From the UHGV virus genome UHGV-0206901: a DNA stretch of 26,230 bases; one strand, 5' to 3'. The stretch comes from a virus. This document shows, in pieces, positions 4,230 to 20,214 of this stretch (the first letter of the stretch is position 1; the number at the start of each line of letters is the position of its first letter). The position numbers were made by a program, and so were the translations under genes. The notes beneath the pieces are model-generated. The model saw only the letters and a program-made list of their open reading frames with translations. It had not been told where the DNA came from and made no database searches.

Positions 4230-4230
4230 G

Positions 4231-6310: not shown

Positions 6311-7082
6311 TGTGAAATGTGAGCTGTATCACGATAACTTCCAGAACTTCAAATCCTACTGCATCCCAAAAGCACAGCTCGTCATTGCTGACATTCCGTA
6401 CAACATCGGCGGCGACTTTTATGCCAGCCGTCCCGACTGGTATGTGAACGGTGACAATCAGAACGGTGAAAGCAGCAAAGCGCACAAGGCTGCATTCCAC
6501 ACGGATTACACCTTCAACATCGCTGAATACTTCGCCTTCTGTAACCGGCTGCTCAAAAAGGAGCCGTCCAAAGGTGAGAAGGATGCTCCCTGCATGATTG
6601 TATTCTGTGCCTTTCAGCAGATACCCGAGGTCATCCGGCAGGCGGAGAAATACGGCTTCAAGAAGTATCAGTTTTTGTGCTTTATGAAGAATTACAGTCC
6701 GCAGGTGCTGAAGGCGAACATGAGGATCGTGGGCGCAACGGAGTTTGCTCTGGTGCTGTATCGGGGAAAGCTGCCGAAGTTCCGCAATACCGATGCATAC
6801 GGCAAGAGGCACATGATCTTCGACCATTTTGACTGGATGCGGGACGGCAAGGATATCCCGAAGATACATCCTTCGCAGAAGCCGGTAAATCTCCTGAAAC
6901 GGCTGATCGGGATATTTACCGACGAGGGTGATGTGGTCATCGATCCCTGCGCCGGTTCCGGCTCAACGCTGCGTGCGGCGAGGGAGCTTGGCAGACACAG
7001 CTACGGCTTTGAAGTCAGCCGAGATTTTTACAACAAAGCCTGTGAGCAGATGCTTGGGGAGGTGCAGGATGACAAAGTATGA
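6303..7082 (+). CDS. DNA amino-methyltransferase (N6-adenine or N4-cytosine), divergent motif IV
   Basis: ATG at 6303 is 6 nt after GGAGG; IADIPYN (variant DPPY-type motif IV) near the N-terminus and DPCAGSGST (motif I, AdoMet binding) near the C-terminus. Confidence 0.7.
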   Translation: MADVKCELYHDNFQNFKSYCIPKAQLVIADIPYNIGGDFYASRPDWYVNGDNQNGESSKAHKAAFHTDYTFNIAEYFAFCNRLLKKEPSKGEKDAPCMIVFCAFQQIPEVIRQAEKYGFKKYQFLCFMKNYSPQVLKANMRIVGATEFALVLYRGKLPKFRNTDAYGKRHMIFDHFDWMRDGKDIPKIHPSQKPVNLLKRLIGIFTDEGDVVIDPCAGSGSTLRAARELGRHSYGFEVSRDFYNKACEQMLGEVQDDKV

Positions 7083-7284
7083 GTGCGCCATTGTGACGGC
7101 ATACACAGATATCTCGATGCTGTGCGGCGATGATCTGAAATATCTGTATGACTATCTTTCCGGCTTTATCGGCAGACCGGTGTATACACACGAGATTCCT
7201 GCGGTGGCTGCGGCTTACAGAGACAAGATCAGAGAGGACTTCCTCGATCTGTGCAGGAACGCAAAGGAGGCGGATGATGGATAA
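7069..7284 (+). CDS. Small hypothetical protein
   Basis: 71-aa ORF starting at an internal ATG of ORF 6928-7284, overlapping the upstream methyltransferase stop; no recognisable motif; the 11-nt overlap with the next gene suggests translational coupling. Confidence 0.4.
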   Translation: MTKYECAIVTAYTDISMLCGDDLKYLYDYLSGFIGRPVYTHEIPAVAAAYRDKIREDFLDLCRNAKEADDG

Positions 7285-9487
7285 GAAACACTTGACCCTC
7301 GGCAGCCTGTTTGACGGCTCGGGGGGGTTTCCGCTTGGCGGCATCCTCGCAGGGATCGAGCCGAAGTGGAGCAGCGAAATTGAACCTTTTCCGGTGCTTG
7401 TCACGCACAAGCGACTGCCTGGGGTGAAGCACTACGGCGATGTATCCACACTGAACGGTGCAGAGCTTCCGCCGGTGGATATTATCACCTTCGGCAGCCC
7501 TTGTCAGGATCTGTCCATTGCTGGAAAGCGTGCCGGAATCCATGACGGTGATCGGTCGAACCTGTTCTTTCAGGCGATCCGTATCATCAAAGAAATGAGG
7601 GATGCAACAAATGGACAATACCCGCGATACTGCGTCTGGGAGAATGTCCCCGGCGCTTTCTCCTCCCACGGAGGAGACGATTTCAAAGCTGTCCTCGAAG
7701 CAGTTATCGGAATTAAAGAAGAAGGGATCGAGGTGCCTGCGCCTGAAAATCACAGATGGGCAAAATCAGACGTATATCTGGGAGACGGATGGAGCGTGGC
7801 TTACCGAGTTTTCGATGCTCAATACTGGGGTGTCCCCCAACGCAGAGCAAGAATCTACCTTGTCGCAGATTTTGCTGGCGGAAGTGCCGGAGAAATACTA
7901 TTTAAGTCCGAAGGCGTGTCTGGGTATACTCCGCAGGGCTTCCGTTCGTGGCAAGGAACTGCCGGAGGTGCTGAAGAAAGCACTGGAGCGACAGGCTGGC
8001 GGTCTGACGCTGGAGGTGGAACCCTCTGCGTAAACTGTCAGGGCACGGCAGGTGTCGGTATCACAGAAGATAAGGCACTGGCACTTGTCGCACAGGATCA
8101 CGGGAATCATCCAGCCGTTCTTGCCGCAGGTTTTTCCACAGAGCATAGTGCAAAAGCACGAAGCATCGGCTACGAAGAGGAAGTATCTCCTACACTGAGA
8201 GCTGGTGTTGTTCCGGCGGCAATGGAGCTTCAAAGCTATCCCGTTGAAAATCATCCTGCGGATTCGAGAGTCAGGGTGCGTGAGGACGGAAAGTGTCAGG
8301 GGCTTACAGGCAGAATGGGAACAGGCGGCGGAAACGTACCGCTTGTAGCAGAACCGATTACGCTAAAAATCCGCAGTGGTGGCGGAAATGGTGGTAAGGG
8401 CGCTATCTGGCAAACAGATAAATCCGCAACTCTTGCAACCAATAATGACCAGACGCTTTTTCAGCCGGAGGTCAAGGCTTTCGGTGTATGCAGCAAGCAC
8501 TCCAATGCGATGATGTCCGACAATCCGCACAGCGGATTCTATGAGGCGACCACAAGCAGAACGCTCGACCAAAGTGGTGGAAATTCTGTGACATCGAATC
8601 AGGGCGGCATCTGCGTGGTAGCACCTGCGCCTGAAACCTTCGATGTGCGTTTCACATCAGACGGTACAAAAAACGCTCGTGGGCATTGTTACCCGACAGA
8701 CATTTCCCGATGCCTTGATACGAGCGAGGCGAACCCGGACAGCAATCACGGAGGAGTTGCGGTGGTGGCTCTCGAACCGGGGGCGGCATCCCGTATCGGC
8801 GGTCATGTATACAGTGACGGCAAAAGCGGCACGCTCCGTGCAAATGCCGGAGACAATCAGCAGGCTGTTGTGGTAGCCGAGAAGGAGACCTATGCACTGC
8901 AAGGCTCGATGATCGGTCGCGCCGATCAGAACGGACCGCAGGGTGATGGTATCAATGAAGATGTGTGCTTTACGCTGAACACAACAGACAGGCATGCTGT
9001 CGCAGCACCGGATGCCGATCACTACAGCACAAGCAAGAATTCTCACCACACAGTCGCCGCACATGAACAGGCAAACACGCTGGTCGCATCCGACTGGAAG
9101 GATCCTCCGCTTGTGAACGACCTTCCGAATGACGAGCCGGTATATATCGTTCGTCGTCTGACTCCGGTGGAGTGCGCCAGATTGCAGGGATTCCCCGACT
9201 GGTGGTGTGCCGACCTTGCGATTCCCGATCCGACCGATGAGGAGATCACCTTCTGGATGGAAGTATGGGAAACTTGGAGACAGATCACAAATCCCAAGGG
9301 AAAGCCGAAAACGGAAAAGCAGATCCGCAAATGGTTGGCTGATCCGTACACGGACAGTGCCGAGTACAAGTTATGGGGCAACGGTGTCTCAGAGCCCGTT
9401 GTGTTCTTCGTGCTATCCGGCATTGCCTGGGCGGCACAGAATTCTGAAACTAATGCAGCAAATTGTGAACATTCTGATACTATGTAA
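7274..9487 (+). CDS. DNA cytosine-5 methyltransferase with an exceptionally long variable (target-recognition) region, possibly multispecific
   Basis: ATG at 7274 preceded by AAGGAGG (7264-7270); motif I LFDGSGG, motif IV GSPCQDLS, motif VI ENVPG, motif VIII QRRARIYLV, C-terminal RRLTPVECARLQGFPDWW; about 480 aa lie between motifs VIII and IX. Confidence 0.9.
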   Translation: MMDKKHLTLGSLFDGSGGFPLGGILAGIEPKWSSEIEPFPVLVTHKRLPGVKHYGDVSTLNGAELPPVDIITFGSPCQDLSIAGKRAGIHDGDRSNLFFQAIRIIKEMRDATNGQYPRYCVWENVPGAFSSHGGDDFKAVLEAVIGIKEEGIEVPAPENHRWAKSDVYLGDGWSVAYRVFDAQYWGVPQRRARIYLVADFAGGSAGEILFKSEGVSGYTPQGFRSWQGTAGGAEESTGATGWRSDAGGGTLCVNCQGTAGVGITEDKALALVAQDHGNHPAVLAAGFSTEHSAKARSIGYEEEVSPTLRAGVVPAAMELQSYPVENHPADSRVRVREDGKCQGLTGRMGTGGGNVPLVAEPITLKIRSGGGNGGKGAIWQTDKSATLATNNDQTLFQPEVKAFGVCSKHSNAMMSDNPHSGFYEATTSRTLDQSGGNSVTSNQGGICVVAPAPETFDVRFTSDGTKNARGHCYPTDISRCLDTSEANPDSNHGGVAVVALEPGAASRIGGHVYSDGKSGTLRANAGDNQQAVVVAEKETYALQGSMIGRADQNGPQGDGINEDVCFTLNTTDRHAVAAPDADHYSTSKNSHHTVAAHEQANTLVASDWKDPPLVNDLPNDEPVYIVRRLTPVECARLQGFPDWWCADLAIPDPTDEEITFWMEVWETWRQITNPKGKPKTEKQIRKWLADPYTDSAEYKLWGNGVSEPVVFFVLSGIAWAAQNSETNAANCEHSDTM

Positions 9488-9526
9488 GCTGTTCTGTATG
9501 GGCTTTCCGTGATATGCACAATCTCA

Positions 9527-9542
9527 GGGGCGTAAAAGCCCC
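9527..9542 (+). terminator. GC hairpin downstream of the C5-methyltransferase gene (possible operon terminator)
   Basis: GGGGC gtaaaa GCCCC stem-loop about 40 nt after the stop; the downstream T-tract is weak. Confidence 0.35.
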
Positions 9543-9564
9543 GTACATTCTACGATTTACAGTC

Positions 9565-9593
9565 TTGATATATCCGCCGTAATGGCGTAATAT
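9565..9593 (+). promoter_or_regulatory. Sigma-A-type promoter cassette 1 (TTGATA, 17 bp, TAATAT) with conserved leader
   Basis: -35 TTGATA at 9565-9570, 17-bp spacer, -10 TAATAT at 9588-9593; leader GTGACTACCGTAAGGGAAAACCGAGCGGAATCAAAAACGAAACGGAGGA precedes the ATG at 9650. Confidence 0.6.
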
Positions 9594-9649
9594 GTGACTA
9601 CCGTAAGGGAAAACCGAGCGGAATCAAAAACGAAACGGAGGATTCACAT

Positions 9650-10771
9650 ATGAAAACTTATGCAATGATCATTGGAAACCGCAAGGAACTCACAAAGAGA
9701 ATCGAGGCACTCACCGGAGAGCGCAGCGTATACACCTTCATGCCGAGATGCGCCTATGAGATCGGGGCATTCGCAGTCGAGAAGGACGGCACACTTACGG
9801 CACAGGACGATGCCAACCAGAGCGTGATCGACACCCTGAGAGCCGAGGGTATGATCGGTGATGAGATCATCGCAGAGAGCATCGAGGCAGTCGAGCCGGA
9901 GCAGACCGATGAGACCGCAGAGCCGGAACAGCCTGCACCGCCCGTAAGCACCGATGAATGGGACGATGATGAGGATGACGACGATGAGAACAGCGTCGAG
10001 GGCGAGAATGCGGAAGCGGAAGAGCCGGAGGAGTCCGAAGAAAATGCCGATAAGTCGGAGCCTGCCGCAGAGCCAGAAGCCGCACCTCCTGCGACCGAGG
10101 ATGCCTGGGATGATGAACCGGAGGATGAACCCGGCGACGAGCCGGAAGAAACCACCGAGCTTCCTGAACCGCTGACCGCAGAGATCAGCTTCCCGCTGAG
10201 CCATCACACGGTGCAGAGCCTTACGAACCTCATCTGCATGATCCACTCCCGCGGCGCACTTCTCAGCAAGGCGACCGGCGGAGAATTCTTCGCAGACAAG
10301 AGCCTCGCCGATGCGATCCTCGATGACAAGACCTTCCGCAGCATCCACGAGCTTATCGCCTACATCAGAGTATGGGAGGAAACGAATCCCGAACTGAAGG
10401 GCATCCGTTTCGCCGATGACAAGCTGATCTTTGACGGCTTCGGTGCAGCACAGGATGCCGAGACGGTGCAGACCTTCACCAAGCTCGCCGCAGCCATGAA
10501 CAGGATGGCGATCACGCAGAAACGTGTGCAAGCAAAGGATGTCGATGACAGCAACGAAAAGTACGCACTCCGCATCTGGCTGATCCGCCTTGGGCTGAAC
10601 GGTGCTGACTTCAAGGCTGACCGCAAGCGCCTCATGACTCCGCTTTCCGGACACACCGCATTCCGCAACGATGAGGAGCGTGAACGCTGGGAGGCAAAGC
10701 AAAAGGCAAAGCGTGATGCTGCCAGAACCGAACTGACCGAGGAGGATGAAAACGATGCAGTTTCCGAATGA
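9650..10771 (+). CDS. Amidoligase-like paralog, probably catalytically degenerate, with a ~95-aa acidic low-complexity insertion
   Basis: 373 aa; the C-terminal half aligns by eye with the downstream amidoligase-like ORF (TVQSLTNL vs TPQTLRNL; KYALRIWLIRLGLNGADF vs KFAMRTWLMRMGFIGDEF); the GVEIE and HCH motifs of the paralog are absent; residues ~80-172 are D/E/P-rich. Confidence 0.55.
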   Translation: MKTYAMIIGNRKELTKRIEALTGERSVYTFMPRCAYEIGAFAVEKDGTLTAQDDANQSVIDTLRAEGMIGDEIIAESIEAVEPEQTDETAEPEQPAPPVSTDEWDDDEDDDDENSVEGENAEAEEPEESEENADKSEPAAEPEAAPPATEDAWDDEPEDEPGDEPEETTELPEPLTAEISFPLSHHTVQSLTNLICMIHSRGALLSKATGGEFFADKSLADAILDDKTFRSIHELIAYIRVWEETNPELKGIRFADDKLIFDGFGAAQDAETVQTFTKLAAAMNRMAITQKRVQAKDVDDSNEKYALRIWLIRLGLNGADFKADRKRLMTPLSGHTAFRNDEERERWEAKQKAKRDAARTELTEEDENDAVSE

Positions 10772-11003
10772 ACGACAGCTCAAAGCCTTGCGGGAGCGTT
10801 ATCCCGAAGGCACCCTTATCCGACTGAAGCACATGGACGATCCCTACGCACCAGTGCCGCCCGGAACAATTGGCGAGGTTCAGATGGTCGATGACGGCGG
10901 CAACATACACATGGTCTGGCAGAACGGCAGAACGCTTTCTCTTATAGAAGGCGTGGATGATTTCCAGGTCATTTCTGACCGCAATGGGGGCCCCGGAAAA
11001 TAA
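10755..11003 (+). CDS. Small hypothetical protein
   Basis: ATG at 10755 is 8 nt after GGAGGA and overlaps the upstream gene end; 82 aa, glycine-rich beta-like sequence (GTIGEVQMVDDGGNIHMVWQNG). Confidence 0.5.
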   Translation: MQFPNERQLKALRERYPEGTLIRLKHMDDPYAPVPPGTIGEVQMVDDGGNIHMVWQNGRTLSLIEGVDDFQVISDRNGGPGK

Positions 11004-11116
11004 GAGATCCTATTCCATTGTATCCGAGTATACCATAGAATTTCAAGTATATCAAGTGTACACATACACCAGATATGAGCAATGTATTTTCCTCGATATT
11101 CTGTGGTTTTAGCGGC

Positions 11117-11145
11117 TTGCTATATCCTCCGAAAGACGGTAACAT
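11117..11145 (+). promoter_or_regulatory. Sigma-A-type promoter cassette 2 (TTGCTA, 17 bp, TAACAT) with conserved leader
   Basis: -35 at 11117-11122, -10 at 11140-11145; leader GTGACACAACGGAAGGGCAAATGCCCACCGAAAAACCGAATCGGAGGA; ATG at 11201. Confidence 0.6.
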
Positions 11146-11200
11146 GTGACACAACGGAAGGGCAAATGCCCACCGAAAAACCGAATCGGAGGATACCAAA

Positions 11201-12145
11201 ATGACTGAGAAAACCGCACAGCAGATCAACAGAATGAAGGAGCAGACCATCGGGGTTGAGATCGAGATGAACAACATCACCCGCAAGGCTGCCGCAAAGC
11301 TCGCCGCTGACTTCTTCGGCACGAACCGCTACGAGGACACGGCCTGCCGCAACGGCTACTACACTTGGAGCGCATGGGATGCACAGGGGCGCGAGTGGAA
11401 ATTCCAGCGGGACGTGAGCATCGCAGGCTCCGACAGCGAAAAGTGCGAACTGGTCACACCGATCCTGCACTACGCAGACATCGAAACCCTGCAGGAGCTT
11501 GTGAGAAAGCTCAGGAAGGCAGGAGCGCGCAGTGATTACACGCGGGGATGTGGAGTCCACTGCCATATTGGAGCCCAGGGACACACACCGCAGACCTTGA
11601 GAAACCTCGCAAACCTGATGGCAAGCCACGAAACCCTGATCGCCGAGGCAATCAGAGTAGACCAGAGCAGAATGCGCCGCTACTGCAGAACAGTTGACCC
11701 GAGATTCCTTGAACAGCTCAACCGCAAAAAGCCCACCACGATGGCACAGCTTGCGGACATCTGGTACGGCGCACAGGGCTGCGAATACGGCAGAACCCAC
11801 CACTACAACGACAGCCGCTATCACATGCTCAACCTCCACGCTACCTTCACCAAAGGCACGGTCGAGTTCAGACTTTTCCAGTTCGCACCGCCCTCAAACG
11901 GCAAGCAGAACGGGCTCCACGCAGGCAAGCTCAAGAGCTACATTCAGCTCTGCCTCGCAATGAGCCAGATGGCAAAGGACCTGCGGAGCGCCAGCCCCAA
12001 GGAGCAGCAGAAGGAAAACAAAAAGTTCGCCATGCGGACTTGGCTGATGAGAATGGGATTCATCGGGGATGAATTCGCAACGGCGAGAGAGGTCCTCACT
12101 GAGAACCTTACGGGCGACAACAGCTTCCGCTTCGGCAGATCTTAA
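11201..12145 (+). CDS. Putative amidoligase (glutamine-synthetase-like / gamma-glutamyl-cysteine-ligase-like ATP-dependent amide ligase family)
   Basis: 314 aa; N-terminal IGVEIEMNN strand with paired glutamates and a central GCGVHCHIG motif, both typical of Amidoligase_2-type enzymes as I recall them; own promoter cassette; followed by an AIG2-like gene. Confidence 0.65.
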   Translation: MTEKTAQQINRMKEQTIGVEIEMNNITRKAAAKLAADFFGTNRYEDTACRNGYYTWSAWDAQGREWKFQRDVSIAGSDSEKCELVTPILHYADIETLQELVRKLRKAGARSDYTRGCGVHCHIGAQGHTPQTLRNLANLMASHETLIAEAIRVDQSRMRRYCRTVDPRFLEQLNRKKPTTMAQLADIWYGAQGCEYGRTHHYNDSRYHMLNLHATFTKGTVEFRLFQFAPPSNGKQNGLHAGKLKSYIQLCLAMSQMAKDLRSASPKEQQKENKKFAMRTWLMRMGFIGDEFATAREVLTENLTGDNSFRFGRS

Positions 12146-12410
12146 AGGCCTGCCCTTCGGGGCGGAAGAACAAGCGGAACGGCACGGCGGCGCACACAGC
12201 CGCCACGGTCTCGGCTCTCGCCTCGGTCGGTGCTTCTGCTTCGCAGAGGTTGCCACTGGCAACCCGCACCCCCGTGTGGGGCGGAAAGGGTATCCTCCGA
12301 ATCGGTATCCCATCTCAGTCAACCGCGCCACACAGCGCAAATGTAGGCAAGGCATAAAATGCACAACATACGGCACAGAATCGCCCTCGATGATCTGTTC
12401 ATTTACTCGC

Positions 12411-12439
12411 TTGATAATGCCGCCGAAATGAGTTAACAT
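12411..12439 (+). promoter_or_regulatory. Sigma-A-type promoter cassette 3 (TTGATA, 17 bp, TAACAT)
   Basis: -35 at 12411-12416, -10 at 12434-12439; leader AGCACTACCGCAAGGAAAAAACGCAAAGGAG; ATG at 12479. Confidence 0.55.
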
Positions 12440-12478
12440 AGCACTACCGCAAGGAAAAAACGCAAAGGAGAACATAGC

Positions 12479-12940
12479 ATGAACAAGAAAAAATACTACA
12501 TAGCCTACGGCAGCAACCTCAACATCCGCCAGATGCGATTCCGCTGCCCAGGCGCAAAGCCTATCGGCATCACGGTGATTCCCGACTACGAACTGCTCTA
12601 CAAGGGCAGCAAGACCGGCGCGTACCTGACCATAGAACCGAAGAAGAACGGCATCGTTCCGATTGCGGTATGGGAGGTCACCGCAGCAGACGAGAAGCGG
12701 CTGGATGCCTACGAGGGCTGCCCGACCTTCTACTACAAGAAGAACGTCTGCCTGCCGGTGAAGCTGGCAAGCGGCAAGACCAAGCGCCTGACAGCATTCG
12801 TCTACATCATGCACGAGGAGCGCAGCCTCGGAATTCCGTCGCTTGCCTACATCCGCACCTGCGAGGAAGGCTATCGCAACTTCGGATTTGATTTGAAGTA
12901 CCTTGACAGGGCATACATGAGAAGCACAAAGGAGGACTGA
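12479..12940 (+). CDS. AIG2 / gamma-glutamyl cyclotransferase (GGCT)-like protein
   Basis: 153 aa; N-terminal YIAYGSNLN matches the Y-x-A-Y-G-S-N-L/M hallmark of the GGCT/AIG2 fold; a candidate catalytic Glu lies in LDAYEGCP. Confidence 0.7.
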   Translation: MNKKKYYIAYGSNLNIRQMRFRCPGAKPIGITVIPDYELLYKGSKTGAYLTIEPKKNGIVPIAVWEVTAADEKRLDAYEGCPTFYYKKNVCLPVKLASGKTKRLTAFVYIMHEERSLGIPSLAYIRTCEEGYRNFGFDLKYLDRAYMRSTKED

Positions 12941-12942
12941 AA

Positions 12943-13146
12943 ATGAAAGAACAAGTTTTTGAAAAGCGTACATGTCCGAAATGCGGACGCACCTACACCG
13001 AGCGCCCTGCCCTATCCCGCTACGACAACGACACGATCATCTGCCCGGACTGCGGCACGAGGGAGGCGCTTGAAAGCATCGGCGTCGGACGCGAGGAACA
13101 GGACAAGATTCTCGGCATTATCCACGAGAAGTACAACGGCGAATAA
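12943..13146 (+). CDS. Small zinc-ribbon protein
   Basis: 67 aa; GGAGG RBS; CPKCG...CPDCG cysteine pairs; the ATG is 2 nt after the upstream stop. Confidence 0.55.
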   Translation: MKEQVFEKRTCPKCGRTYTERPALSRYDNDTIICPDCGTREALESIGVGREEQDKILGIIHEKYNGE

Positions 13147-13154
13147 GGCGGCAC

Positions 13155-13178
13155 AAAGGGGCGTTACAGCCCCTTTCC
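13155..13178 (+). terminator. Putative intrinsic terminator
   Basis: AAAGGGGC gttaca GCCCCTTT hairpin followed by TCC; 8 nt after the stop of the zinc-ribbon gene. Confidence 0.5.
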
Positions 13179-13317
13179 GCATTCTCAGGGATAACTTATC
13201 CCCCACTTTCCGGGCGTGACACGGCGCGTTCTGGCGCAAACTGTGGGCTTGTGTATATGTACCTGTTCAGCTTGCTGAAAACGGCGATTCTTCTACGATT
13301 TATTTTGCACATAGGCG

Positions 13318-13346
13318 TGGACATATCGCCGGGATCATGGTAATAT
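13318..13346 (+). promoter_or_regulatory. Sigma-A-type promoter cassette 4 (TGGACA, 17 bp, TAATAT) with upstream A/T-rich element
   Basis: TTTATTTTGCACATAGGCG upstream; -35 at 13318-13323; TG-extended -10 at 13341-13346; leader CACAACGGCAGGGGCAGACAGCCCACC. Confidence 0.6.
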
Positions 13347-13404
13347 GCTACACAACGGCAGGGGCAGACAGCCCACCGGAATTCATAACATGGAGGATAC
13401 GAAT

Positions 13405-13875
13405 ATGAACGACAGCTACTTTGAGGAGATGACCTTCCAGTGCGCCGCCTATGAACGCGCCAAAAAGGAGCGCGCCGAGCGCAAGGCTCAGATTGCCGAA
13501 GCCCACGGCTACGACAGCCCGGAGATGGACGCTTGGTACGCTGAGGAGAAGGCGGCGGGTCCTTACCCCTACAGCGGCGGTGAGATGAAAGCCTACTGGG
13601 TGTACAAGATGCGCCGCGAGAACGACGGTGACGAGTTCGAGATGAGCGATTACTGCTGGGACAAGGAATTCCACGATTTCATCGAAACGCTCCGCAAGCT
13701 AGGCATCACCGAGTTCACGATCACCAATCAGAGCACGGCGCTGATGGAGAACATCTACGGATTTATTGCAGAAGGCTGCACGATGGTCGGAACGCACACC
13801 ATCACCAAGAAGAGCCTGCGCTGGGGCGAGGAAGAATACGAAACGGCACAGGGCATCCTTTTCAAGGTGAACTGA
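13405..13875 (+). CDS. Hypothetical protein
   Basis: ATG at 13405 is 8 nt after GGAGGA, the same position as in the other cassettes; 156 aa; no recognisable motif. Confidence 0.55.
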   Translation: MNDSYFEEMTFQCAAYERAKKERAERKAQIAEAHGYDSPEMDAWYAEEKAAGPYPYSGGEMKAYWVYKMRRENDGDEFEMSDYCWDKEFHDFIETLRKLGITEFTITNQSTALMENIYGFIAEGCTMVGTHTITKKSLRWGEEEYETAQGILFKVN

Positions 13876-13883
13876 TATCGACA

Positions 13884-13920
13884 GGAGCAGGGCTTCGGCT
13901 CTGCTCCCCCTCCCCCTTTT
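13884..13920 (+). terminator. UUCG-tetraloop hairpin, putative terminator
   Basis: GGAGCAGGGC ttcg GCTCTGCTCC (10 bp with one G-U pair) followed by CCCCTCCCCCTTTT; the same hairpin recurs at 15715-15738. Confidence 0.45.
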
Positions 13921-13993
13921 CCTCATGTGTAAATCCTACAATACGAAAGGCTGAGATCGGCGATTCTTCTACGTTTTATTTTGCACATAGGCG

Positions 13994-14022
13994 TGGACTT
14001 ATCAGCAGGATCATGGTAATAT
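13994..14022 (+). promoter_or_regulatory. Sigma-A-type promoter cassette 5 (TGGACT, 17 bp, TAATAT)
   Basis: Near-identical to cassette 4, including the upstream TTTATTTTGCACATAGGCG; leader GTGACACAACGGAAGGGCAGAACGCCTACCGAAAAACGAAACGGAGGA. Confidence 0.6.
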
Positions 14023-14077
14023 GTGACACAACGGAAGGGCAGAACGCCTACCGAAAAACGAAACGGAGGATAACACC

Positions 14078-14398
14078 ATGAACCCCTACACACTGAGAAA
14101 GAGCCTGAACCTGATTGATGCCAACACGGCGATCATCCGCGAGGACTTCGAGAGCCTCTTCTGCAAGACTGCAGAGCGTGTCACCTTTACCTTCAACGGT
14201 TGGGACGGCAAGAGCTATGATGGCGAGAGGCGCAGCGGTTACGTTTACCGCACCATCATCGAGGGCTACGAGAATGTGAGATTCTTTAAGGTCGGCAAGG
14301 GACTGCATTACATCGATGAGGACAGCAGCATTACCGAGAAGGCTACGGGCATCGCCCACAAGGAAGCAGAGTGGCTGGTCGATGTGAAGAGAGCATAA
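14078..14398 (+). CDS. Hypothetical protein
   Basis: 106 aa; GGAGGA 7 nt upstream of the ATG. Confidence 0.55.
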   Translation: MNPYTLRKSLNLIDANTAIIREDFESLFCKTAERVTFTFNGWDGKSYDGERRSGYVYRTIIEGYENVRFFKVGKGLHYIDEDSSITEKATGIAHKEAEWLVDVKRA

Positions 14399-14463
14399 GC
14401 AAAACAGCGGAGCCCTTCCTGCGGGGAGGGCTTACCGCAGAAAAAACATGGAGGTTTACGAAC

Positions 14464-14847
14464 ATGAGTACGAATTCAAGAGTCGGAATCCTGCATCAGG
14501 ACGGCGCCACGGAGACAATCTACTGCCATTGGGACGGCTACCCCGAACACCAGATGCCCATCCTCACCGAGCATTATAACACCGCCGAGAAGGTCAAGGC
14601 ACTGCTTGCCCTTGGAGACATCAGCATCCTCGGCGAGCGCCTTGCTCCCGATGCGGATGAGCCGCACAGCTTTGAAAAGCCTGCCGATGGTGTGACGGTT
14701 GCTTACCACCGCGACCGCAAAGAGCCGATGCAGCCTGCGGTCACCCACAAGAGCGTTGTTTCCCTGATGAGCGATGACTGGGGCATTCCGTATTACTACC
14801 TTTTCGATGAGGAAAAAGGAGCATGGCTTCCGCCGACCGAGGACTGA
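14464..14847 (+). CDS. Hypothetical protein
   Basis: Internal ATG at 14464 is 9 nt after GGAGG; 127 aa; probably co-transcribed with the preceding gene (no promoter cassette in between, only a hairpin). Confidence 0.5.
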   Translation: MSTNSRVGILHQDGATETIYCHWDGYPEHQMPILTEHYNTAEKVKALLALGDISILGERLAPDADEPHSFEKPADGVTVAYHRDRKEPMQPAVTHKSVVSLMSDDWGIPYYYLFDEEKGAWLPPTED

Positions 14848-15276
14848 TAGGTTCAGCCCTGCGGGGCTGACTTGCCCCACGTTGTCCTTTGTGAGGTTTT
14901 CCTGCGATAAGCTTGCCCCTGCGGAAAGCCGCCTCACACGGCGCGTTTGTGTGCTGACCGCAGTCATCGCAAACCTGTCGGCCACGGGAACATGGACGGA
15001 GCGAGAAGTGATGGAAACGCTGCTGGATGTCTTTGAACCGAAGGAGCTTGAACAGCTCGGCTACGGCGACTGCGTGAACGCATACTTGGAAGAGTACGGC
15101 GGATGGCGACGACACACGCACCACGTTGCCTCGTGTGGGGCGGTGCCGGGGAGATGCGTACAGCTTGCCCCTGCGAAAAGCCGCCTTACACGGCGCGTTC
15201 TGGCGCGTCCTATACGATGTACAATTCCGCCCGACTTCCCGCCTCATGTTTGTCACATTTATTTTGCAGACAGACG

Positions 15277-15305
15277 TGGACTTTTCTGCGAAAAGACGGT
15301 AATAT
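15277..15305 (+). promoter_or_regulatory. Sigma-A-type promoter cassette 6 (TGGACT, 17 bp, TAATAT)
   Basis: Upstream TTTATTTTGCAGACAGACG; leader GTGACTACCGCAAGAGAAGCGGAATCAATCAAAAGGAG; ATG at 15353. Confidence 0.6.
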
Positions 15306-15352
15306 GTGACTACCGCAAGAGAAGCGGAATCAATCAAAAGGAGCGAATCTAC

Positions 15353-15706
15353 ATGAAAATTCTGGTATGCGAACCCGGCAAGCACCCCTACGTCAAGGAC
15401 ATCGAGTCGGGGCTGGAGAACCTTCAGCACGAGGTGGACGGACTGATTCAGGCCCTCTACCCATTTTCCGAAGAGGCGGCTGTTGTGTGCAACGAAGAAG
15501 GGCTGTTCCGCGATGACCTCGAATGGAACAGAACGGTCGATCCCTATGGTCCGATCAAGGGAACATTCTTCATTTGTGGGCTCGGCTTTGAAGATTTTAC
15601 AGGACTGACCGATGAACAGATCGAAAAGTACACTAAGCTCTTCTGGCCTCCTGAGCTTTTCATCCCGACACCGAACGGCATGGTGGTGCTTCACATTGTG
15701 GAATGA
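15353..15706 (+). CDS. Hypothetical protein
   Basis: 117 aa, starting at the ATG placed like the other cassette-driven genes; the longer ORF-track frame (14774-15706) reads through repeat and promoter sequence and is probably not all coding. Confidence 0.55.
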   Translation: MKILVCEPGKHPYVKDIESGLENLQHEVDGLIQALYPFSEEAAVVCNEEGLFRDDLEWNRTVDPYGPIKGTFFICGLGFEDFTGLTDEQIEKYTKLFWPPELFIPTPNGMVVLHIVE

Positions 15707-15809
15707 CCGCAACAGGGGCAGGGCTTCGGCTCTGCTCCGCACCATTCCCCGGTCATAATGTACACAACTGAACGCCGAAAAATTCAGAAATGATCGTGAT
15801 TACTCACGC

Positions 15810-15838
15810 TTGATAATGTAGGCAAGAAGAGTTATACT
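15810..15838 (+). promoter_or_regulatory. Sigma-A-type promoter cassette 7 (TTGATA, 17 bp, TATACT)
   Basis: Leader GTGTACAACGGAAGGGCGGAAAGCCCAGCCGAAAACGAAAATGCGGAGG; ATG at 15896. Confidence 0.6.
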
Positions 15839-15895
15839 GTGTACAACGGAAGGGCGGAAAGCCCAGCCGAAAACGAAAATGCGGAGGTACACACC

Positions 15896-16075
15896 ATGAA
15901 AACGAAGCAGGAACTGATCGAGAAGGCAAAGAAAGAGTGGGGCGAGACTTGGAACGAGGGCATGATCGAGTACGATGCCGAGTACAACGAGTACATCGTC
16001 TGGGTAGGCAAGCCGGACATCTACAAAGCCTTCTTCGATGCCGACACCCTCAGATGCATTGGCACGAAGTGCTGA
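15896..16075 (+). CDS. Small hypothetical protein
   Basis: 59 aa; GGAGG 7 nt upstream; lysine/glutamate-rich. Confidence 0.45.
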   Translation: MKTKQELIEKAKKEWGETWNEGMIEYDAEYNEYIVWVGKPDIYKAFFDADTLRCIGTKC

Positions 16076-16130
16076 GAACAACCGCCGCCCTTCGGGGCGG
16101 CACAACACCAATACTAAGGAGGACATTTAC

Positions 16131-16403
16131 ATGAGCGAGAACACAGAAAAGCGCGATGCAGCCGAAGAACTAGAACTTACCGATGCACAGGCAGACCGCA
16201 ACGATGACATCTACGAGGCAGCTTTTGAATTCTGCAAGGTGCTGACCGAGAACCCCGACCTCGAATGGGACATGGCGTTCCTCGGTGAGATCGCCGACCT
16301 TGCCGCTGGCATCATGACCGAGCAGGGACACAAGGTGCGGTTCCCCAGTGTGGTCACCGAGCAGGACGGCACGCAGTACATTGAAGAATACTACGGCGGC
16401 TGA
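16131..16403 (+). CDS. Small acidic hypothetical protein
   Basis: 90 aa; AAGGAGG 7 nt upstream; preceded by the GCCGCCC ttcg GGGCGGC hairpin (16083-16100); ends ...YIEEYYGG. Confidence 0.5.
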   Translation: MSENTEKRDAAEELELTDAQADRNDDIYEAAFEFCKVLTENPDLEWDMAFLGEIADLAAGIMTEQGHKVRFPSVVTEQDGTQYIEEYYGG

Positions 16404-16604
16404 TCGGCAAAACGGAGCAGTCCTTCTGCGGAGGGGCTGTTCCACGCCACGTTCGCTTGTGTGGGGGGCTTACGGCTTTCTGCGGATATCTTGCCCCGCG
16501 ATAAAAGCCGCCCACACGGCGCATTTGTGTGCCTCCTGCGGCAAGGCATAATATGTACAACAACCGACAAAAAATCGCCTTGCACATTCTGGTAGTTTAG
16601 CCGC

Positions 16605-16633
16605 TTGATATATCTGCCGAAAAGAGTTATAGT
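16605..16633 (+). promoter_or_regulatory. Sigma-A-type promoter cassette 8 (TTGATA, 17 bp, TATAGT)
   Basis: Leader GTGTACAACGGAACGGGAAACCGAGCCGAAAACTACGAAAGAACGAGG; ATG at 16690. Confidence 0.55.
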
Positions 16634-16689
16634 GTGTACAACGGAACGGGAAACCGAGCCGAAAACTACGAAAGAACGAGGTAAACACT

Positions 16690-16926
16690 ATGTGGCACGA
16701 AGGCACGATTCTGGCACCGACCAAGGAAGGCAAGACGGTGGTTCACTACTGGGCAAAGGTCTACGACGAGGGCAGCCAGTACGGCATCAACGAGGGCAGA
16801 ATCAGTAAACTAACACTCAAGGAGAATGGCAAGGTCATCTACAACTACGACAGAGGCGAGGATGTACCCGAGCAGAACGAGGCTGCGAAGATTGCCCTTG
16901 CGATCCTGATGTACGAGTACAAGTAA
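16690..16926 (+). CDS. Small hypothetical protein
   Basis: 78 aa ORF downstream of cassette 8. Confidence 0.5.
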   Translation: MWHEGTILAPTKEGKTVVHYWAKVYDEGSQYGINEGRISKLTLKENGKVIYNYDRGEDVPEQNEAAKIALAILMYEYK

Positions 16927-17014
16927 ATAGAACGGTCGGTGGGCGGTAGCATTAAGCCGCCCATCCAAACCAAGACGGACACACATATAAATTCAAGGTG
17001 GATATACATAGGAG

Positions 17015-17044
17015 AGGCTTGCAGCACGCAGGCCTTTTCTTTAT
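17015..17044 (+). terminator. Intrinsic terminator between the accessory island and the packaging genes
   Basis: AGGCTTGC agcac GCAGGCCT (8 bp, one G-U) followed by TTTTCTTTAT; ends about 30 nt before the terS start. Confidence 0.6.
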
Positions 17045-17074
17045 GCAGATTTTTTGAGAAAAGGAGTGATGCGG

Positions 17075-17548
17075 ATGGCTCAGAGAGGCAGAAAACCGAC
17101 GCCGACAGCAATCAAGGAACTGGAAGGCAATCCGGGCAAGCGTCCGCTGAATGATGCAGAGCCGAAGCCGGAACGCAAGGCACCGCCCTGTCCGAAATGG
17201 CTGGAGCCCGAAGCAAAAAAGGAATGGCGCAGGCTGTCAAAGCAACTGGAGCAGATTGGTGTGCTGACCGAGGTCGATCAGGCGGCATTCGCATCCTACT
17301 GTCAGGCATACGCACGATGGAAAGAAGCCGAGGAATTCATGACACAGCACGGCACGATCGTGAAAACAAAATCAGGTTACTGGCAGCAGGTGCCGCAGGT
17401 ATCCATTGCACAGACCTATCTGAAGATCATGAATAAGATCGCAGAACAGTTCGGTCTGACTCCTGCCGCAAGAAGCAGGATCACCGCAGGTGCGGATATG
17501 AAGGACGCTGCCGTTGACGATATGGATGAACTTCTCGGAGGTGACTGA
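17075..17548 (+). CDS. terS: Terminase small subunit
   Basis: AAGGAG 8 nt upstream of the ATG at 17075; 157 aa; basic N-terminus (RGRKPTPTAIKELEGNPGKRP) and overall pattern typical of P27-family small terminases; sits directly upstream of, and overlaps, the large terminase. Confidence 0.8.
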   Translation: MAQRGRKPTPTAIKELEGNPGKRPLNDAEPKPERKAPPCPKWLEPEAKKEWRRLSKQLEQIGVLTEVDQAAFASYCQAYARWKEAEEFMTQHGTIVKTKSGYWQQVPQVSIAQTYLKIMNKIAEQFGLTPAARSRITAGADMKDAAVDDMDELLGGD

Positions 17549-20214
17549 TGGCGAGAACGGCAAAGGCAAGAGAAAGACCTGCCAACTATCCGAAACTGAA
17601 GGATTATAAACCGACACGCTTTATGCTGCCGGAATCGCACTACGATGCGGCAAAGGCTGACCGAGCTGTGCGGTTCATCGAGAATCTCTGCCATACCAAA
17701 GGACGCTGGGCAGGAAAGCCGTTCTGGTTGCTGCCGTGGCAGGAACAGATCATCCGGGATATTTTCGGCATCGTCAAAGAGGATGATACCCGCCAATTCC
17801 GCACAGCTTATGTCGAAATTCCAAAGAAAAATGGGAAGCAGCTTGCACTGGATACACCGATCCCGACTCCGCAGGGATTCACCAATATGGGAGATCTGAA
17901 GGTCGGAGATACAGTATTCGATGAAAACGGCATTCCGTGCCATGTGGTTGCGAAAAGTCCTGTGGATGATACAGAGCAAGCCTACAAGCTGACCTTCAAG
18001 GACGGCAGCTCGATCATCGCCGGAGAACGGCATCTGTGGAACTGTCAGTATATTTACGGCAAACGCAAGGATGTTCTCTGGACGACCGGCGAGATCTATC
18101 GCAGGACTTCAGAATACAGACGGCGATTCTCAGACCGACCGCAGTCAAAGCGGGATTCTCTGATCCGAATTCCGGTGTGCGGTGTCCTTCAGACAGAAGC
18201 GGCAGTTTTACCGATTGATCCGTATCTGTACGGCTACTGGCTCGGAAACGGTAATGTGACCATGCCGGAGATCACTGTTCGGACGGAGGATGTCGAGGAT
18301 ATCATCTCGAATATTCCGTATAAGGTACACAACCGTTATCCGCAGAAATGCGGCGGCAGTGAGATCATAAAGTACAATGAACTGAAAGCAGTACTACTTG
18401 ACAGCTTCCGTGAAAAGAAGATCCGACCAGAATATCTGAGGGCATCCGCAGAGCAGAGATGGGCATTACTGCAAGGGCTTATGGATTCGGACGGCTGTAT
18501 CGGTGAACGCAAAGGGCAAAGTGTGTATGTCACAACGCTGCGAGAGCTGGCGCTTTCCGTCAGAGAACTGCTGTGGTCGCTCGGTATCAAAAATGCAGTG
18601 AAATGTGAGCCTTCTACTCGGCATGGGTGGCCGACTGGAGAGATTTTGTATATCGTCCGGTTTACTACCTTTGACGATCAGCCGACATCAAGACTGAAAC
18701 GAAAGTACACACGCACACGGGCGCGGGTGAAAGAAACTCGCTCCTGTTTTCATTATTTACTGGACATTCAGCCTGTGGATCATCCTGTGAAAATGCAGTG
18801 TATTCAGGTGGATAGTCCTAGCCACCAATATCTTGCTGGAACATCGTTTGTGCCTACGCACAACAGTGAGCTTGCAGCCGCAATTGCGCTGTATCTGCTC
18901 TACGCTGACAACGAGCCATCCGCCGAGGTCTACGGTGCTGCCGCCGACCGACAGCAGGCATCCATTGTATTCGATGTCGCCAAAAGAATGGTTGAGATGA
19001 CACTGGCACTTCTGAAACGCTCAAAAATCATGGCGGCGACAAAGCGTCTGGTGAATTACAGCAATGTCGGTTTCTATCAGGTGCTTTCGGCGGAGGTCGG
19101 AACAAAACACGGTCTGAATGTATCTGGGCTTGTGCTTGACGAGCTTCATGTTCAGCCGAACCGTAATCTTGTGGACGTTCTCACAAAGGGATCCGGTGAT
19201 GCCCGTACTCAGCCGCTGTACTTCCTGATCACCACAGCCGGCACTGACCGAAACAGCATCTGCTATGAATACCACACCAAGGCAAAAGACATCCTCGAAG
19301 GGCGGCGTATCGATCCGTCATTCTATCCTGTCATTTACGGTCTGGATGACGGCGACGACTGGAATTCAGAGGAATCGTGGTACAAGGCAAATCCGTCTCT
19401 CGAATACACAATTACCATAGACCGTGTGCGGGATGCCCATCGTGAAGCACTGACAAATCCTGCGGAAGAAAATGTATTCCGTCAGCTTCGTCTTGATCAG
19501 TGGGTTGGCAGTGCGGTTGCATGGGTGCCGGAGCATATCTACGACAAAGGCAATATACCAATCAATCCGGAGTCTCTGTACGGACGCGAGTGCTATGCAG
19601 GACTGGACCTTTCCAGTACATCTGATATCACGGCATTTGTTCTGGTATTCCCACCGTTGTATGAGGGTGATAAATACATCGTTGTACCCCACTTCTGGCT
19701 GCCGAGGGAAACACTTGACCTGCGTGTACGGCGAGACCATGTTCCCTACGATGTATGGGAGCGCATGGGGCTATTTCATATCACCGAGGGCAATGTGGTG
19801 GACTACAACTTCGTGCGGAAAACGATCAATGAGCTGCACACGATGTATAACATCAAGGAAATTGCAGCAGACCGCTGGAATGCCACACAGCTTATCACCG
19901 ACCTGCAGGGTGACGGTTTTACCGTTGTCCCGATGGGCATGGGCTTCAAGGATATGTCGCCACCGATGAAGGAGCTTTACAAGCTGCTGCTTGAGGGCAA
20001 GTTTATCCATGGCGGAAATCCTGTCCTGCGATGGATGGCAGGAAATGTGGTCGCTGAAATTGACGCGGCGGAAAATATCAAGCCGTCCAAGAAAAAGTCT
20101 ACAGAGAAAATTGACGGCATCGTAGCATGGATCATGGCACTTGACCGCTGCATCCGCCACGAAATGCAGGGCAGTGTCTATGACGAACCCGGCCACGATC
20201 TTGTGGTCATCTGA
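17548..20214 (+). CDS. terL: Terminase large subunit, interrupted by an in-frame intein at the Walker A (P-loop) site
   Basis: 888-aa ORF; N-extein ends ...EIPKKNGK and C-extein begins SELAAAIALYLLYADNEPSAEVYGAAADRQQ, which together rebuild a canonical PKKNGKS P-loop; C-terminal nuclease-domain-like region; followed by the portal gene. Confidence 0.92.
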   Translation: MARTAKARERPANYPKLKDYKPTRFMLPESHYDAAKADRAVRFIENLCHTKGRWAGKPFWLLPWQEQIIRDIFGIVKEDDTRQFRTAYVEIPKKNGKQLALDTPIPTPQGFTNMGDLKVGDTVFDENGIPCHVVAKSPVDDTEQAYKLTFKDGSSIIAGERHLWNCQYIYGKRKDVLWTTGEIYRRTSEYRRRFSDRPQSKRDSLIRIPVCGVLQTEAAVLPIDPYLYGYWLGNGNVTMPEITVRTEDVEDIISNIPYKVHNRYPQKCGGSEIIKYNELKAVLLDSFREKKIRPEYLRASAEQRWALLQGLMDSDGCIGERKGQSVYVTTLRELALSVRELLWSLGIKNAVKCEPSTRHGWPTGEILYIVRFTTFDDQPTSRLKRKYTRTRARVKETRSCFHYLLDIQPVDHPVKMQCIQVDSPSHQYLAGTSFVPTHNSELAAAIALYLLYADNEPSAEVYGAAADRQQASIVFDVAKRMVEMTLALLKRSKIMAATKRLVNYSNVGFYQVLSAEVGTKHGLNVSGLVLDELHVQPNRNLVDVLTKGSGDARTQPLYFLITTAGTDRNSICYEYHTKAKDILEGRRIDPSFYPVIYGLDDGDDWNSEESWYKANPSLEYTITIDRVRDAHREALTNPAEENVFRQLRLDQWVGSAVAWVPEHIYDKGNIPINPESLYGRECYAGLDLSSTSDITAFVLVFPPLYEGDKYIVVPHFWLPRETLDLRVRRDHVPYDVWERMGLFHITEGNVVDYNFVRKTINELHTMYNIKEIAADRWNATQLITDLQGDGFTVVPMGMGFKDMSPPMKELYKLLLEGKFIHGGNPVLRWMAGNVVAEIDAAENIKPSKKKSTEKIDGIVAWIMALDRCIRHEMQGSVYDEPGHDLVVI
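17839..18864 (+). mobile_element. Intein (~342 aa) with an embedded double-motif LAGLIDADG homing endonuclease, inside terL
   Basis: Block A-like LALDTPIPT...GDLKVGDTVF; block B GERHLW; two LAGLIDADG motifs (LYGYWLGNGNV and LLQGLMDSDGCI); terminal ...FVPTHN followed by Ser +1. Confidence 0.8.

Follow-up and report, generated by a model that had tools for sequence, protein, structure and literature searches.

Why should a phage carry one and the same promoter and leader in front of gene after gene, when the genes themselves are mostly unrelated? This question is raised by a 26,230-nt stretch of the virus genome UHGV-0206901 (hereafter the window, meaning the whole stretch that was analysed), which by its gene content is part of a tailed phage or prophage. 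Between its DNA-methylase genes and the small terminase gene terS lie eight cassettes, here called c1 to c8, each of which combines a promoter, a leader and a Shine-Dalgarno (SD) sequence directly ahead of a cargo gene. The cassettes are homologous repeats and not chance promoter matches, and the module is not unique to the window; it is a lineage-wide feature under selection. The explanation that we favour, with moderate confidence, is that the cassettes are autonomous, moron-like expression units served by the host sigma-A factor which double as recombination joints, with a cargo likely to function in host takeover or anti-defence. Together, the eight units would constitute a hyperplastic accessory-gene array between the methylase genes and terS.

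An earlier note, made from the sequence of the window alone, had placed promoter-leader sites at positions 9565, 11117, 12411, 13318, 13994, 15277, 15810 and 16605. All eight are present there, co-directional on the + strand. The -35 hexamers (TTGATA four times, TTGCTA once, TGGACA once and TGGACT twice) and -10 hexamers (TAATAT four times, TAACAT twice, TATACT and TATAGT once each) were confirmed, as was the exact 17-bp spacer at all eight sites, five of which were returned by an independent consensus promoter scan and three of which were counted by hand. A GGAGG-type SD precedes the ATG by 8 nt in all eight. The claim that the cassettes are near-identical stood as far as homology goes but not in degree, the mean column identity over the eight-copy alignment being 61%. 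Likewise, the leader consensus quoted for them applies to c2, c4, c5, c7 and c8 but not to c1, c3 and c6, which have a variant leader (GTGACTACCGYAAG...). The A/T-rich block that had been seen upstream of several cassettes, TTTATTTTGCACATAGGCG, was found at 13299, 13975 and 15258. The 13-mer leader core ACAACGGAAGGGC, with at most two mismatches, occurs five times against 0.67 expected, a count reached in none of 100 shuffles. A hidden Markov model (HMM) built from the eight copies was run over the 26-kb window and returned these eight and nothing else (E 1e-13 to 6e-24), and a repeat search of the window places the cassettes in families D1-D8, D10, D12, D14 and D16.

The window leaders form two subtypes, A (c2, c4, c5, c7 and c8; pattern ACAACGG-AA-GGGC-loop-GCCC-N-CCG) and B (c1, c3 and c6; pattern ACTACCGYAAG...), and the promoters form two or three, TTGATA/TTGCTA being preceded by TGTACATTTAGCCGC and TGGACW by TTTATTTTGCACATAGGCG. 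Seven of the eight leaders are dominated by a single hairpin (z -2.8 to -4.5) that leaves the A-rich remainder and the SD unpaired; all coordinates that follow are on the + strand. Cassette c1 (9543..9649, subtype B, nhmmer E 1.8e-20) has its -35 TTGATA at 9565-9570, its -10 TAATAT at 9588-9593, GGAGG at 9637-9641 and the ATG at 9650, with a hairpin at 9601-9621 (-8.7 kcal/mol, z -2.8). Cassette c2 (11092..11200, subtype A, HMM E 6.5e-24) combines -35 TTGCTA at 11117 with -10 TAACAT, an SD and the ATG at 11201, and its hairpin at 11155-11175 (CGG-aa-GGGC-aaat-GCCC-a-CCG) has -10.2 kcal/mol and z -2.8. A shortened subtype B leader characterizes c3 (12386..12478, E 1.3e-13; -35 TTGATA at 12411, -10 TAACAT, AAGGAG as SD, ATG at 12479), in which only a minimal CC-GCAA-GG hairpin forms (-1.1 kcal/mol, z 0.04, not significant). 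The next three have TGGAC-type promoters. In c4 (13294..13404, subtype A leader, TTTATTTTGCACATAGGCG upstream) the -35 TGGACA at 13318 is followed by a TG-extended -10 TAATAT, a hairpin at 13356-13378 (-10.8 kcal/mol, z -3.1) and the ATG at 13405; in c5 (13970..14077, subtype A, E 2.6e-22) the -35 TGGACT at 13994 is followed by -10 TAATAT, a hairpin at 14032-14053 (-8.4 kcal/mol, z -2.8; score of the cassette 67 bits) and the ATG at 14078; and in c6 (15254..15352, subtype B leader) the -35 TGGACT at 15277 is followed by -10 TAATAT, a hairpin at 15313-15327 (CCGC-aagagaa-GCGG, -5.7 kcal/mol, z -3.0), GGAGC as SD and the ATG at 15353. Cassette c7 (15791..15895, subtype A; -35 TTGATA at 15810, -10 TATACT, ATG at 15896) folds at 15847-15869 (-13 kcal/mol, z -3.8), and c8 (16582..16689; -35 TTGATA at 16605, -10 TATAGT, ACGAGG as SD, ATG at 16690) is a subtype A variant with inner stem CGG/CCG and a GAAA loop, whose hairpin spans 16642-16661 (-9.3 kcal/mol, z -4.5). 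A further promoter-like site (TTGATA, 17 bp, TATACT, with a TG extension) was observed on the - strand at 11027-11055, in the AT-rich spacer before c2. It is directed back into the genes for the DUF4314 and 373-aa proteins, its surrounding sequence is conserved in a deposited phage genome introduced below (NatCom_23091), and it may be an antisense promoter.

Beyond the window, an exact-pattern scan of viral contigs gave 86 stretches, and the HMM search that followed gave 391 cassettes in 73 viral contigs, with at most 13 per locus of ~14 kb and almost always co-directional. A pattern scan of genome contigs returned mostly chance single matches in unrelated phyla and 10 true loci; genuine matches are in Ruminococcus flavefaciens 007c, with an array of seven cassettes (locus L108), in Ruminococcus and Oscillospiraceae metagenome-assembled genomes (MAGs) and in rumen Clostridia MAGs. 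Almost all copies belong to one HK97-type phage lineage, in which they stand between the DNA methylases and terS; the array is followed by terS in 42 loci and preceded by methylases in 9-11. Across loci the small terminase TerS is 96-100% and the large terminase TerL 93-96% identical to that of the window, and the number of cassettes ranges from 3 to 13. A second lineage, with a TerL ~60% identical, also has cassettes, and in two of its loci (L071 and L022) some cassette-plus-cargo units stand between terL and the portal gene. To this lineage belongs the deposited Ruminococcus phage NatCom_23091 (PV036433.1, locus L208; Ca. Heliusvirales; TerL 62% identical), which was first reached through a cargo protein and then confirmed by HMM. 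It has four to five detectable cassettes, at locus positions 6298-6413, 7518-7608, 8513-8582 and 9497-9606. In its annotation the cassettes are called as 'hypothetical proteins' of 30-45 aa, which are probably spurious open reading frames (ORFs) over regulatory DNA; an element resembling the repeat E2 described below was seen at 7376-7450. Neither the array (megablast) nor the cassette consensus (blastn) had a match among GenBank phages, and the Heliusvirales papers make no mention of promoters or intergenic repeats. The negative control was Faecalibacterium phage FP_oengus, in which a DUF3846 gene and numerous small genes are present but no such repeats. A repeat design of this kind is known in principle from T4-like phages and has not been described for this lineage.

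To see which parts of the module are kept, promoter statistics were drawn from 252 unique copies anchored on the -10 hexamer. The first T and the G at position 3 of the -35 hexamer are 100% conserved at the fixed distance of 17 bp from the -10; the variation at positions 4-6 (-35) and 3-5 (-10) is of the kind that sigma-70-family promoters tolerate. The -10 hexamer is TAATAT in 78% of the copies and has a TG extension in 32%. The spacer sequence drifts among copies, and a block of ~18 nt adjoining the -35 upstream (-41..-24) is conserved. At the other end of the module, GGAGG precedes the ATG by 8 nt in 124 of the 192 cassettes with a recognisable SD. The conserved parts are thus chiefly those required for a sigma-A promoter and for the start of translation, together with a hairpin conserved in structure, and this pattern agrees with the proposal of the earlier note that the cassette is a predicted expression module.

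The ~18-nt upstream block is conserved beyond what a promoter needs, and this speaks for a different explanation, namely that the cassettes are operator-plus-promoter units of a repressor-controlled regulon which would give a coordinated transient burst after DNA entry, as EGeRS2 and Reg do on plasmid p576. As operator one would have to assume either the conserved sequence next to the -35 (TCTGTACATTTAGCCGC) or the DNA palindrome of the hairpin. On p576 the operators adjoin the -35 upstream and also lie downstream of the start site, there are several strong sigma-A promoters, and variable establishment genes are arranged in multiple operons (PMC8708921). However, the Reg operator TTATCCCnnTTATCCC is absent at the promoters, its one match with 3 mismatches lying outside the array and being at chance level. 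The upstream block comes in two or more divergent forms and has no evident dyad or direct-repeat symmetry. As the DNA site of a single protein the hairpins vary too much in their stems and loop lengths, yet the pairing is kept. The cargo families scanned include no helix-turn-helix or ribbon-helix-helix (RHH) regulator, although one could be among the unannotated small proteins. We hold a regulon of this type to be unlikely, and it could coexist with autonomous expression units.

The leader hairpin, which the earlier note had not remarked on, points to the RNA. By alignment-free folding all 175 unique leaders form a hairpin (median z -2.5), typically starting 8-10 nt past the -10, which is 1-4 nt past the expected transcript start. 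There are 73 distinct arm combinations, e.g. CGG-GGGC/GCCC-CCG, CCGC/GCGG, CGGCGG/CCGCCG and CCGAGG/CCTCGG. In a covariance-model alignment of 39 diverse copies 97.5% of the cells pair, and four of the seven pairs have changes on both sides; the covariation score is 0.116 compared to 0.019 in shuffles, was reached in none of 500 of them and collapses when the partners are slid. Stem sequences that differ while their pairing is kept indicate a role at the RNA level. Two other alignments were put aside: a covariance-model alignment of the top 150 copies was dominated by one subtype with nearly no variation and is uninformative on structure either way, and RNAalifold on MAFFT alignments of mixed leader subtypes, in which the subtypes are misaligned, gave no structure, so that alignment-free folding and covariance-model alignment were used instead. 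A scan against Rfam 15 gave no match at gathering thresholds, the sole match below threshold being a chance-level PhotoRC-I (E 0.7). CsrA-type GGA sites in the leader were considered and rejected, as the position of the GGA is not conserved between subtypes.

A second hairpin stands at the 3' side of the cargo. For 89% of the first cargo genes a GC-rich stem of at least 5 bp was found within about 12 nt 3' of the gene; UNCG tetraloops occur in 44% of these post-gene stems and a U-tract in almost none. The UNCG loops indicate selection at the RNA level. In the window such a hairpin, with a UUCG loop, follows the amidoligase gene at 12149..12165 (+ strand), and equivalent ones are at 9526-9543, 13156-13176, 13884-13907, 14407-14438, 14853-14870, 15715-15738, 16084-16101 and 16414-16443. 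UNCG-loop hairpins without a U-tract are unusual as terminator or 3'-stabiliser structures for a Firmicutes phage.

A role at the RNA level could also mean that the leader hairpin is the site of an RNA-binding factor, be it an antiterminator (boxB/nut-like), a translational regulator or an RNase III/Y signal by which read-through transcripts are cut into monocistronic mRNAs. In favour of this, the single-stranded flanks of the stem are conserved (AC[A/T]AC before, GAA[A/T] after) and the loops are purine-rich, and 3' hairpins lacking U-tracts make read-through between units likely. On the other hand, the stems of one genome differ widely in sequence and in length (4 to >10 bp), as do the loops (3-8 nt), and a generic structural role is the better fit to this; the absence of any Rfam family match, with no candidate RNA-binding protein identified, likewise tells against a dedicated factor, which we consider rather improbable.

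The earlier note had also proposed that the cassettes serve as homology for gene shuffling, and had suggested comparing related phages. In this comparison the cargo does differ between conserved cassettes, relatives with a terminase at least 93% identical having different cargo sets behind their 3-13 cassettes. Indels were compared between loci at least 88% identical, giving 48 unique junction pairs; cassettes cover 6% of the sequence and E2, a second intergenic repeat of ~100 nt which the earlier note had missed, 2.3%. In 8 of the 48 pairs both ends fall in cassettes, where chance would give about 0.2; seven of these 8 share 31-84 nt of homology and one shares none. In five further pairs, which share 41-99 nt, both ends fall in E2. 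Indel endpoints lie in cassettes or in E2 far more often than chance predicts. One cargo family is found behind different promoter subtypes, and the promoter subtype tracks the upstream neighbour, which is the expected footprint of crossovers inside the cassette. Junctions and promoter/cargo mosaics support the shuffling proposal, and comparing relatives shows repeat-mediated loss, gain and re-joining of units.

E2 follows the 3' hairpin of one unit and precedes the next promoter; 167 copies were found in 67 loci, always on the gene strand. The window has four full copies, at 12256..12348 (copy 1, a variant 3' of the amidoligase gene), 14869..14961 (copy 2), 15114..15213 (copy 3) and 16440..16539 (copy 4), all on the + strand, and a partial one at 13180-13262. 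Copies 3 and 4 are the left and right crossover partners of a 1.25-kb indel: in four contigs from four datasets (L029, L015, L066 and L056) the region 15200-16446 of the window, with the DUF3846 gene and two further genes, is absent and a hybrid E2 is present, the left part of which (in L029) matches the window copy at 15114 and the right part the copy at 16440. We treat E2 as a repeat that serves as a crossover site. It is an imperfect inverted repeat whose main stem has little covariation, and RNAalifold on a MAFFT alignment, in which the subtypes are misaligned, found no structure. A structured RNA was rejected, as the z-scores are good against mononucleotide shuffles but only one of the four window copies is significant against dinucleotide shuffles; an attC-like site was rejected too, there being no inverted core sites and little covariation, and so were a tRNA and a tandem array. 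Positions 12289-12306 of copy 1 are, in 17 of 18 nt, the reverse complement of the amidoligase SD region (11180-11197), and this is conserved in relatives; the anti-SD CCUCC falls in a predicted loop, and the complementarity could reflect 5'-3' pairing or be the relic of an inverted cassette. In the arrays of two relatives a tyrosine recombinase trio (RIT-like element) is inserted, in L071 (oriented 339-3520), where it is flanked by inverted E2 copies, and in L009 (~3.5-kb insertion).

Recent duplication of one 5' region, combined with indels that are assembly artefacts, would produce repeats with no special function at all. Many copies of the dominant class are indeed nearly identical, and the comparison data are mostly short-read metagenome contigs. 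Against this, conservation is position-specific, hexamers, stem pairing and SD being kept while spacer and loop drift; the module persists in lineages with a ~60% identical TerL and in a deposited complete phage genome; and the same junction recurs in four independent datasets. An absence of function is accordingly very improbable.

The first genes behind 359 cassettes belong to only 19 families, among which are Amidoligase_2, GGACT, DUF4314, DUF4313, DUF3846, DUF6900, DUF7698, DUF7678 and Nmad4, next to several unassigned ones, of which some are very acidic. Among relatives the families mostly keep the same order, with differences in presence or absence and some rearrangements. The downstream genes in the window had been called unrelated to one another; this is true for all but the first two, which have a 70-aa C-terminal domain in common (33% identity, E 8e-11). 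Four of the eight units are bicistronic (genes starting at 9650 and 10746, 12479 and 12943, 14078 and 14464, 15896 and 16131). Unit 1 (9650..11003; like all units on the + strand) encodes a phrog_2443-like acidic protein of 373 aa (9650-10771), which has the C-terminal domain in common with the amidoligase, and a DUF4314 protein (10746-11003), and unit 2 (11201..12145) the Amidoligase_2 protein (314 aa, E 1e-55). A GGACT/gamma-glutamyl cyclotransferase (GGCT; 12479-12940) and a 67-aa zinc-ribbon protein (12943-13146) make up unit 3 (12479..13146), and a DUF7698 protein of 156 aa unit 4 (13405..13875). Unit 5 (14078..14847) consists of genes for a 106-aa protein (14078-14398) and a 127-aa phrog_1987 protein (14464-14847), the latter having its own cassette in relatives and in the window only a hairpin, an A-rich run and an SD (14399-14455). 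Unit 6 (15353..15706) encodes a DUF3846 protein of 117 aa, unit 7 (15896..16403) proteins of 59 aa (15896-16075) and 90 aa (16131-16403), and unit 8 (16690..16926) a DUF7678 protein of 78 aa, the final array gene in most relatives. Between units 5 and 6 lies the pseudogene remnant of a small gene (14955..15110, + strand), intact in L075 and L029. Its 5' end was lost together with the preceding DUF6900 cassette (612 nt including nine codons) by a TGC-microhomology deletion, and its stop codon has changed from TAG to TGG, so that the frame continues into the DUF3846 gene.

An NCBIfam scan of the cargo gained no names. On a Vescimonas replicon, a DUF3846 domain is found under a 590-aa gene annotated ArdA, beside a transposon-transfer-assisting gene, and a set of two amidoligases plus GGCT recurs in Clostridium clostridioforme prophages (PMC11318856). 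The ArdA context and the recurring amidoligase/GGCT set are hints of an anti-defence or takeover role.

The array is set among ordinary phage genes. Upstream, from 1.3 to 9.5 kb, are genes for NrdD/NrdG, a ParB-methylase, a PAPS-reductase-like protein, an N6/N4 methylase and a 779-aa C5 methylase; from 17.1 kb onward follow a P27-family small terminase, the large terminase, a portal, a ClpP-type protease, an HK97-fold capsid protein and head-tail connectors. In the 7.5 kb between methylases and terS there are thirteen small genes and a pseudogene, every one of them on the + strand. Only the last cargo gene is followed by a hairpin with a T-rich tail, directly before terS, where a terminator-like hairpin and then a T-rich run occupy 17011..17055 (+ strand; terS starts at 17075). 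The host setting is that of an HK97-type phage or prophage of Ruminococcus/Oscillospiraceae, probably a temperate Clostridia phage. At 4216-9487, adjoining the array upstream, the ParB-fused N6/N4, the N6/N4 and the 779-aa C5 methyltransferases (the last with three matched stretches) stand together with the PAPS-reductase-like gene, which suggests a broader anti-restriction region. The large terminase (17548-20214, 888 aa) has an insertion of ~340 aa with a LAGLIDADG_3 domain, and when it is aligned to the 521-aa TerL of NatCom_23091, the match is broken from residue ~97 to ~435; the insertion is an intein.

This setting is at odds with the leading region of a conjugative element bearing single-strand (Frpo-type) promoters, an idea suggested by the occurrence of DUF3846, DUF4314, DUF4313 and amidoligase also on conjugative elements, by the DUF3846 domain under the ArdA-annotated gene of the Vescimonas replicon and by the long inverted repeat of E2, but scarcely credible with phage genes on both sides (NrdDG and methylases; terS, terL, portal, protease and HK97 capsid), with -35 and -10 collinear across a 17-bp spacer in a duplex arrangement and not split across hairpin arms, and with an E2 fold that is not reliably better than shuffles and shows little covariation. 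The likeness to leading regions of conjugative elements drawn in the earlier note is therefore analogy only.

If the cassettes are autonomous expression units and recombination joints, as we favour, the following course of events would be expected. Host sigma-A RNA polymerase would start about 7 nt past the -10, and the transcript would begin 1-4 nt before the GC-rich stem-loop, which would act as a 5'-terminal stabiliser. Owing to the unstructured A-rich linker, the near-consensus SD (GGAGG, 8 nt ahead of the ATG) would stay accessible and one or two small genes would be translated efficiently; the UNCG-loop hairpin lacking a U-tract would close or protect the 3' end, and the proper terminator before terS would insulate the array from the late operon. 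Because every unit has the same ~110-bp 5' module, often with E2 upstream, homologous recombination between repeats deletes, inserts and re-joins whole gene units, a step which the comparison of relatives shows. The cargo most likely has host-takeover or anti-defence functions, and its products would be made immediately on DNA entry, requiring no phage factor.

Several observations weigh against this explanation. Within the dominant leader class 98.7% of the cells pair with little covariation; the covariation is therefore mostly a difference between subtypes, seen in an alignment that had been fitted to the model. At least one unit, c3, can do without the hairpin, as none of significance forms there. 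Of the 48 junction pairs, 28 lie in neither repeat, and the deletion specific to the window is the 3-nt microhomology event and not a cassette recombination. The comparison was made on metagenome assemblies, and since these may collapse at repeats of 50-100 nt, a part of the junctions could be artefactual; the main ones probably are not, because they recur in independent datasets. Finally, we infer from the sequence the expression of the predicted units, their start sites, their timing (early lytic versus lysogen) and the stabiliser role, as well as the function of a cargo that is mostly DUFs.

A more far-reaching possibility, which we regard as speculative and on balance unlikely, is that the array corresponds, in a phage, to the leading region of a plasmid and is assembled from exchangeable parts. 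It would be the first-out genome end directly upstream of cos/pac at terS, its position just upstream of terS suggesting that it might be the first DNA into the cell, and would consist of self-sufficient anti-defence cassettes (host promoter, 5' stabiliser hairpin, SD, gene and UNCG hairpin, with or without E2) that are swapped at the regulatory repeats among Heliusvirales-like gut and rumen phages and possibly conjugative elements with the same DUF families. If so, this would be a promoter-borne gene-cassette system for fast counter-defence turnover. More generally, the ~110-nt module provides a marker, searchable by HMM or covariance model, of the accessory and probably host-takeover or anti-defence gene pool of a lineage related to Ca. 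Heliusvirales that is widespread in human guts and rumens, and the 19 first-gene families (mostly DUFs, several very acidic) form a short testable list of candidate counter-defence proteins. The cassettes could also be a source of ready-made strong promoter, 5' untranslated region (UTR) and SD parts for the genetically difficult Ruminococcus and Oscillospiraceae hosts, and they flag an annotation error, having been called as tiny hypothetical ORFs in a deposited genome. They would moreover extend the principle of regulatory repeats as recombination joints, as in the promoter-early stem-loop elements (PeSLs), from T4-like myoviruses of Gram-negatives to siphovirus-type, probably temperate Clostridia phages.

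How do these units relate to known systems? Integron gene cassettes were rejected, as every unit has its own promoter, E2 lacks inverted core sites and there is no integrase in the window. In Cluster K mycobacteriophages the start-associated sequences (SAS) and their extended form (ESAS) are a 13-bp translation-proximal motif before many start codons, not accompanied by a promoter; we know of no recombination role established for them. The cassettes resemble SAS in being a short conserved sequence repeated upstream of many start codons in one phage genome. The host-takeover module of SPO1 and the first-entering early regions of T5 and T7 have dense host-polymerase promoters and strong SDs serving many small early genes near a genome end, but these promoters are not one homologous repeat family with a common leader, nor is shuffling a defining feature. 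Morons of lambdoid and other temperate phages (the Juhala/Hendrix concept) are isolated units with unrelated promoters. The units described here are likewise autonomous combinations of promoter, gene and terminator-like hairpin between conserved phage genes, including terL and the portal gene in L071 and L022, but they number 3-13 in tandem and have one homologous regulatory module.

Among mobile elements of Firmicutes, the EGeRS2 regulon of the p576/pLS20 family also has several operons of variable genes, mostly of unassigned function, each behind a homologous strong sigma-A promoter sequence, for which rapid expression on entry was proposed as it is here; it differs in belonging to a conjugative plasmid, in its Reg operator and RHH repressor and in having four copies compared to 8-13, and no conserved leader hairpin was described for it (PMC8708921). 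The likeness to plasmid anti-defence leading regions is one of function only (PMC11541004). The PeSLs of T4-like phages, for which both strong promoter activity and a role as recombination joints in modular shuffling were shown experimentally (Arbiol et al. 2010, PMC2839356; Comeau et al. 2014, PMC4122927), have most in common with the cassettes: a sigma-70-type promoter with a conserved upstream block, a stem-loop, and an SD and start codon at the 3' edge; concentration in a hyperplastic region before small non-essential genes, all 8 window copies lying in 9.5-16.7 kb; and boundaries of indels or replacements between close relatives that fall in the motif. PeSLs differ in belonging to T4-like myoviruses, as opposed to a Clostridia phage with an HK97-type module, and there is no sequence relationship. 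Their stem-loop is mostly within or before the promoter and a terminator, whereas that of the cassettes is in the predicted 5' UTR and covaries, so that stem-loops occur here both upstream (the 3' UNCG hairpins, which lack U-tracts) and downstream of the predicted start. In the cassettes, unlike PeSLs, the whole ~50-nt leader is repeated, a separate UNCG hairpin closes the 3' side and E2 takes part. By lineage and by sequence the array is thus not a member of the PeSL family; it is a variant of the same known design.

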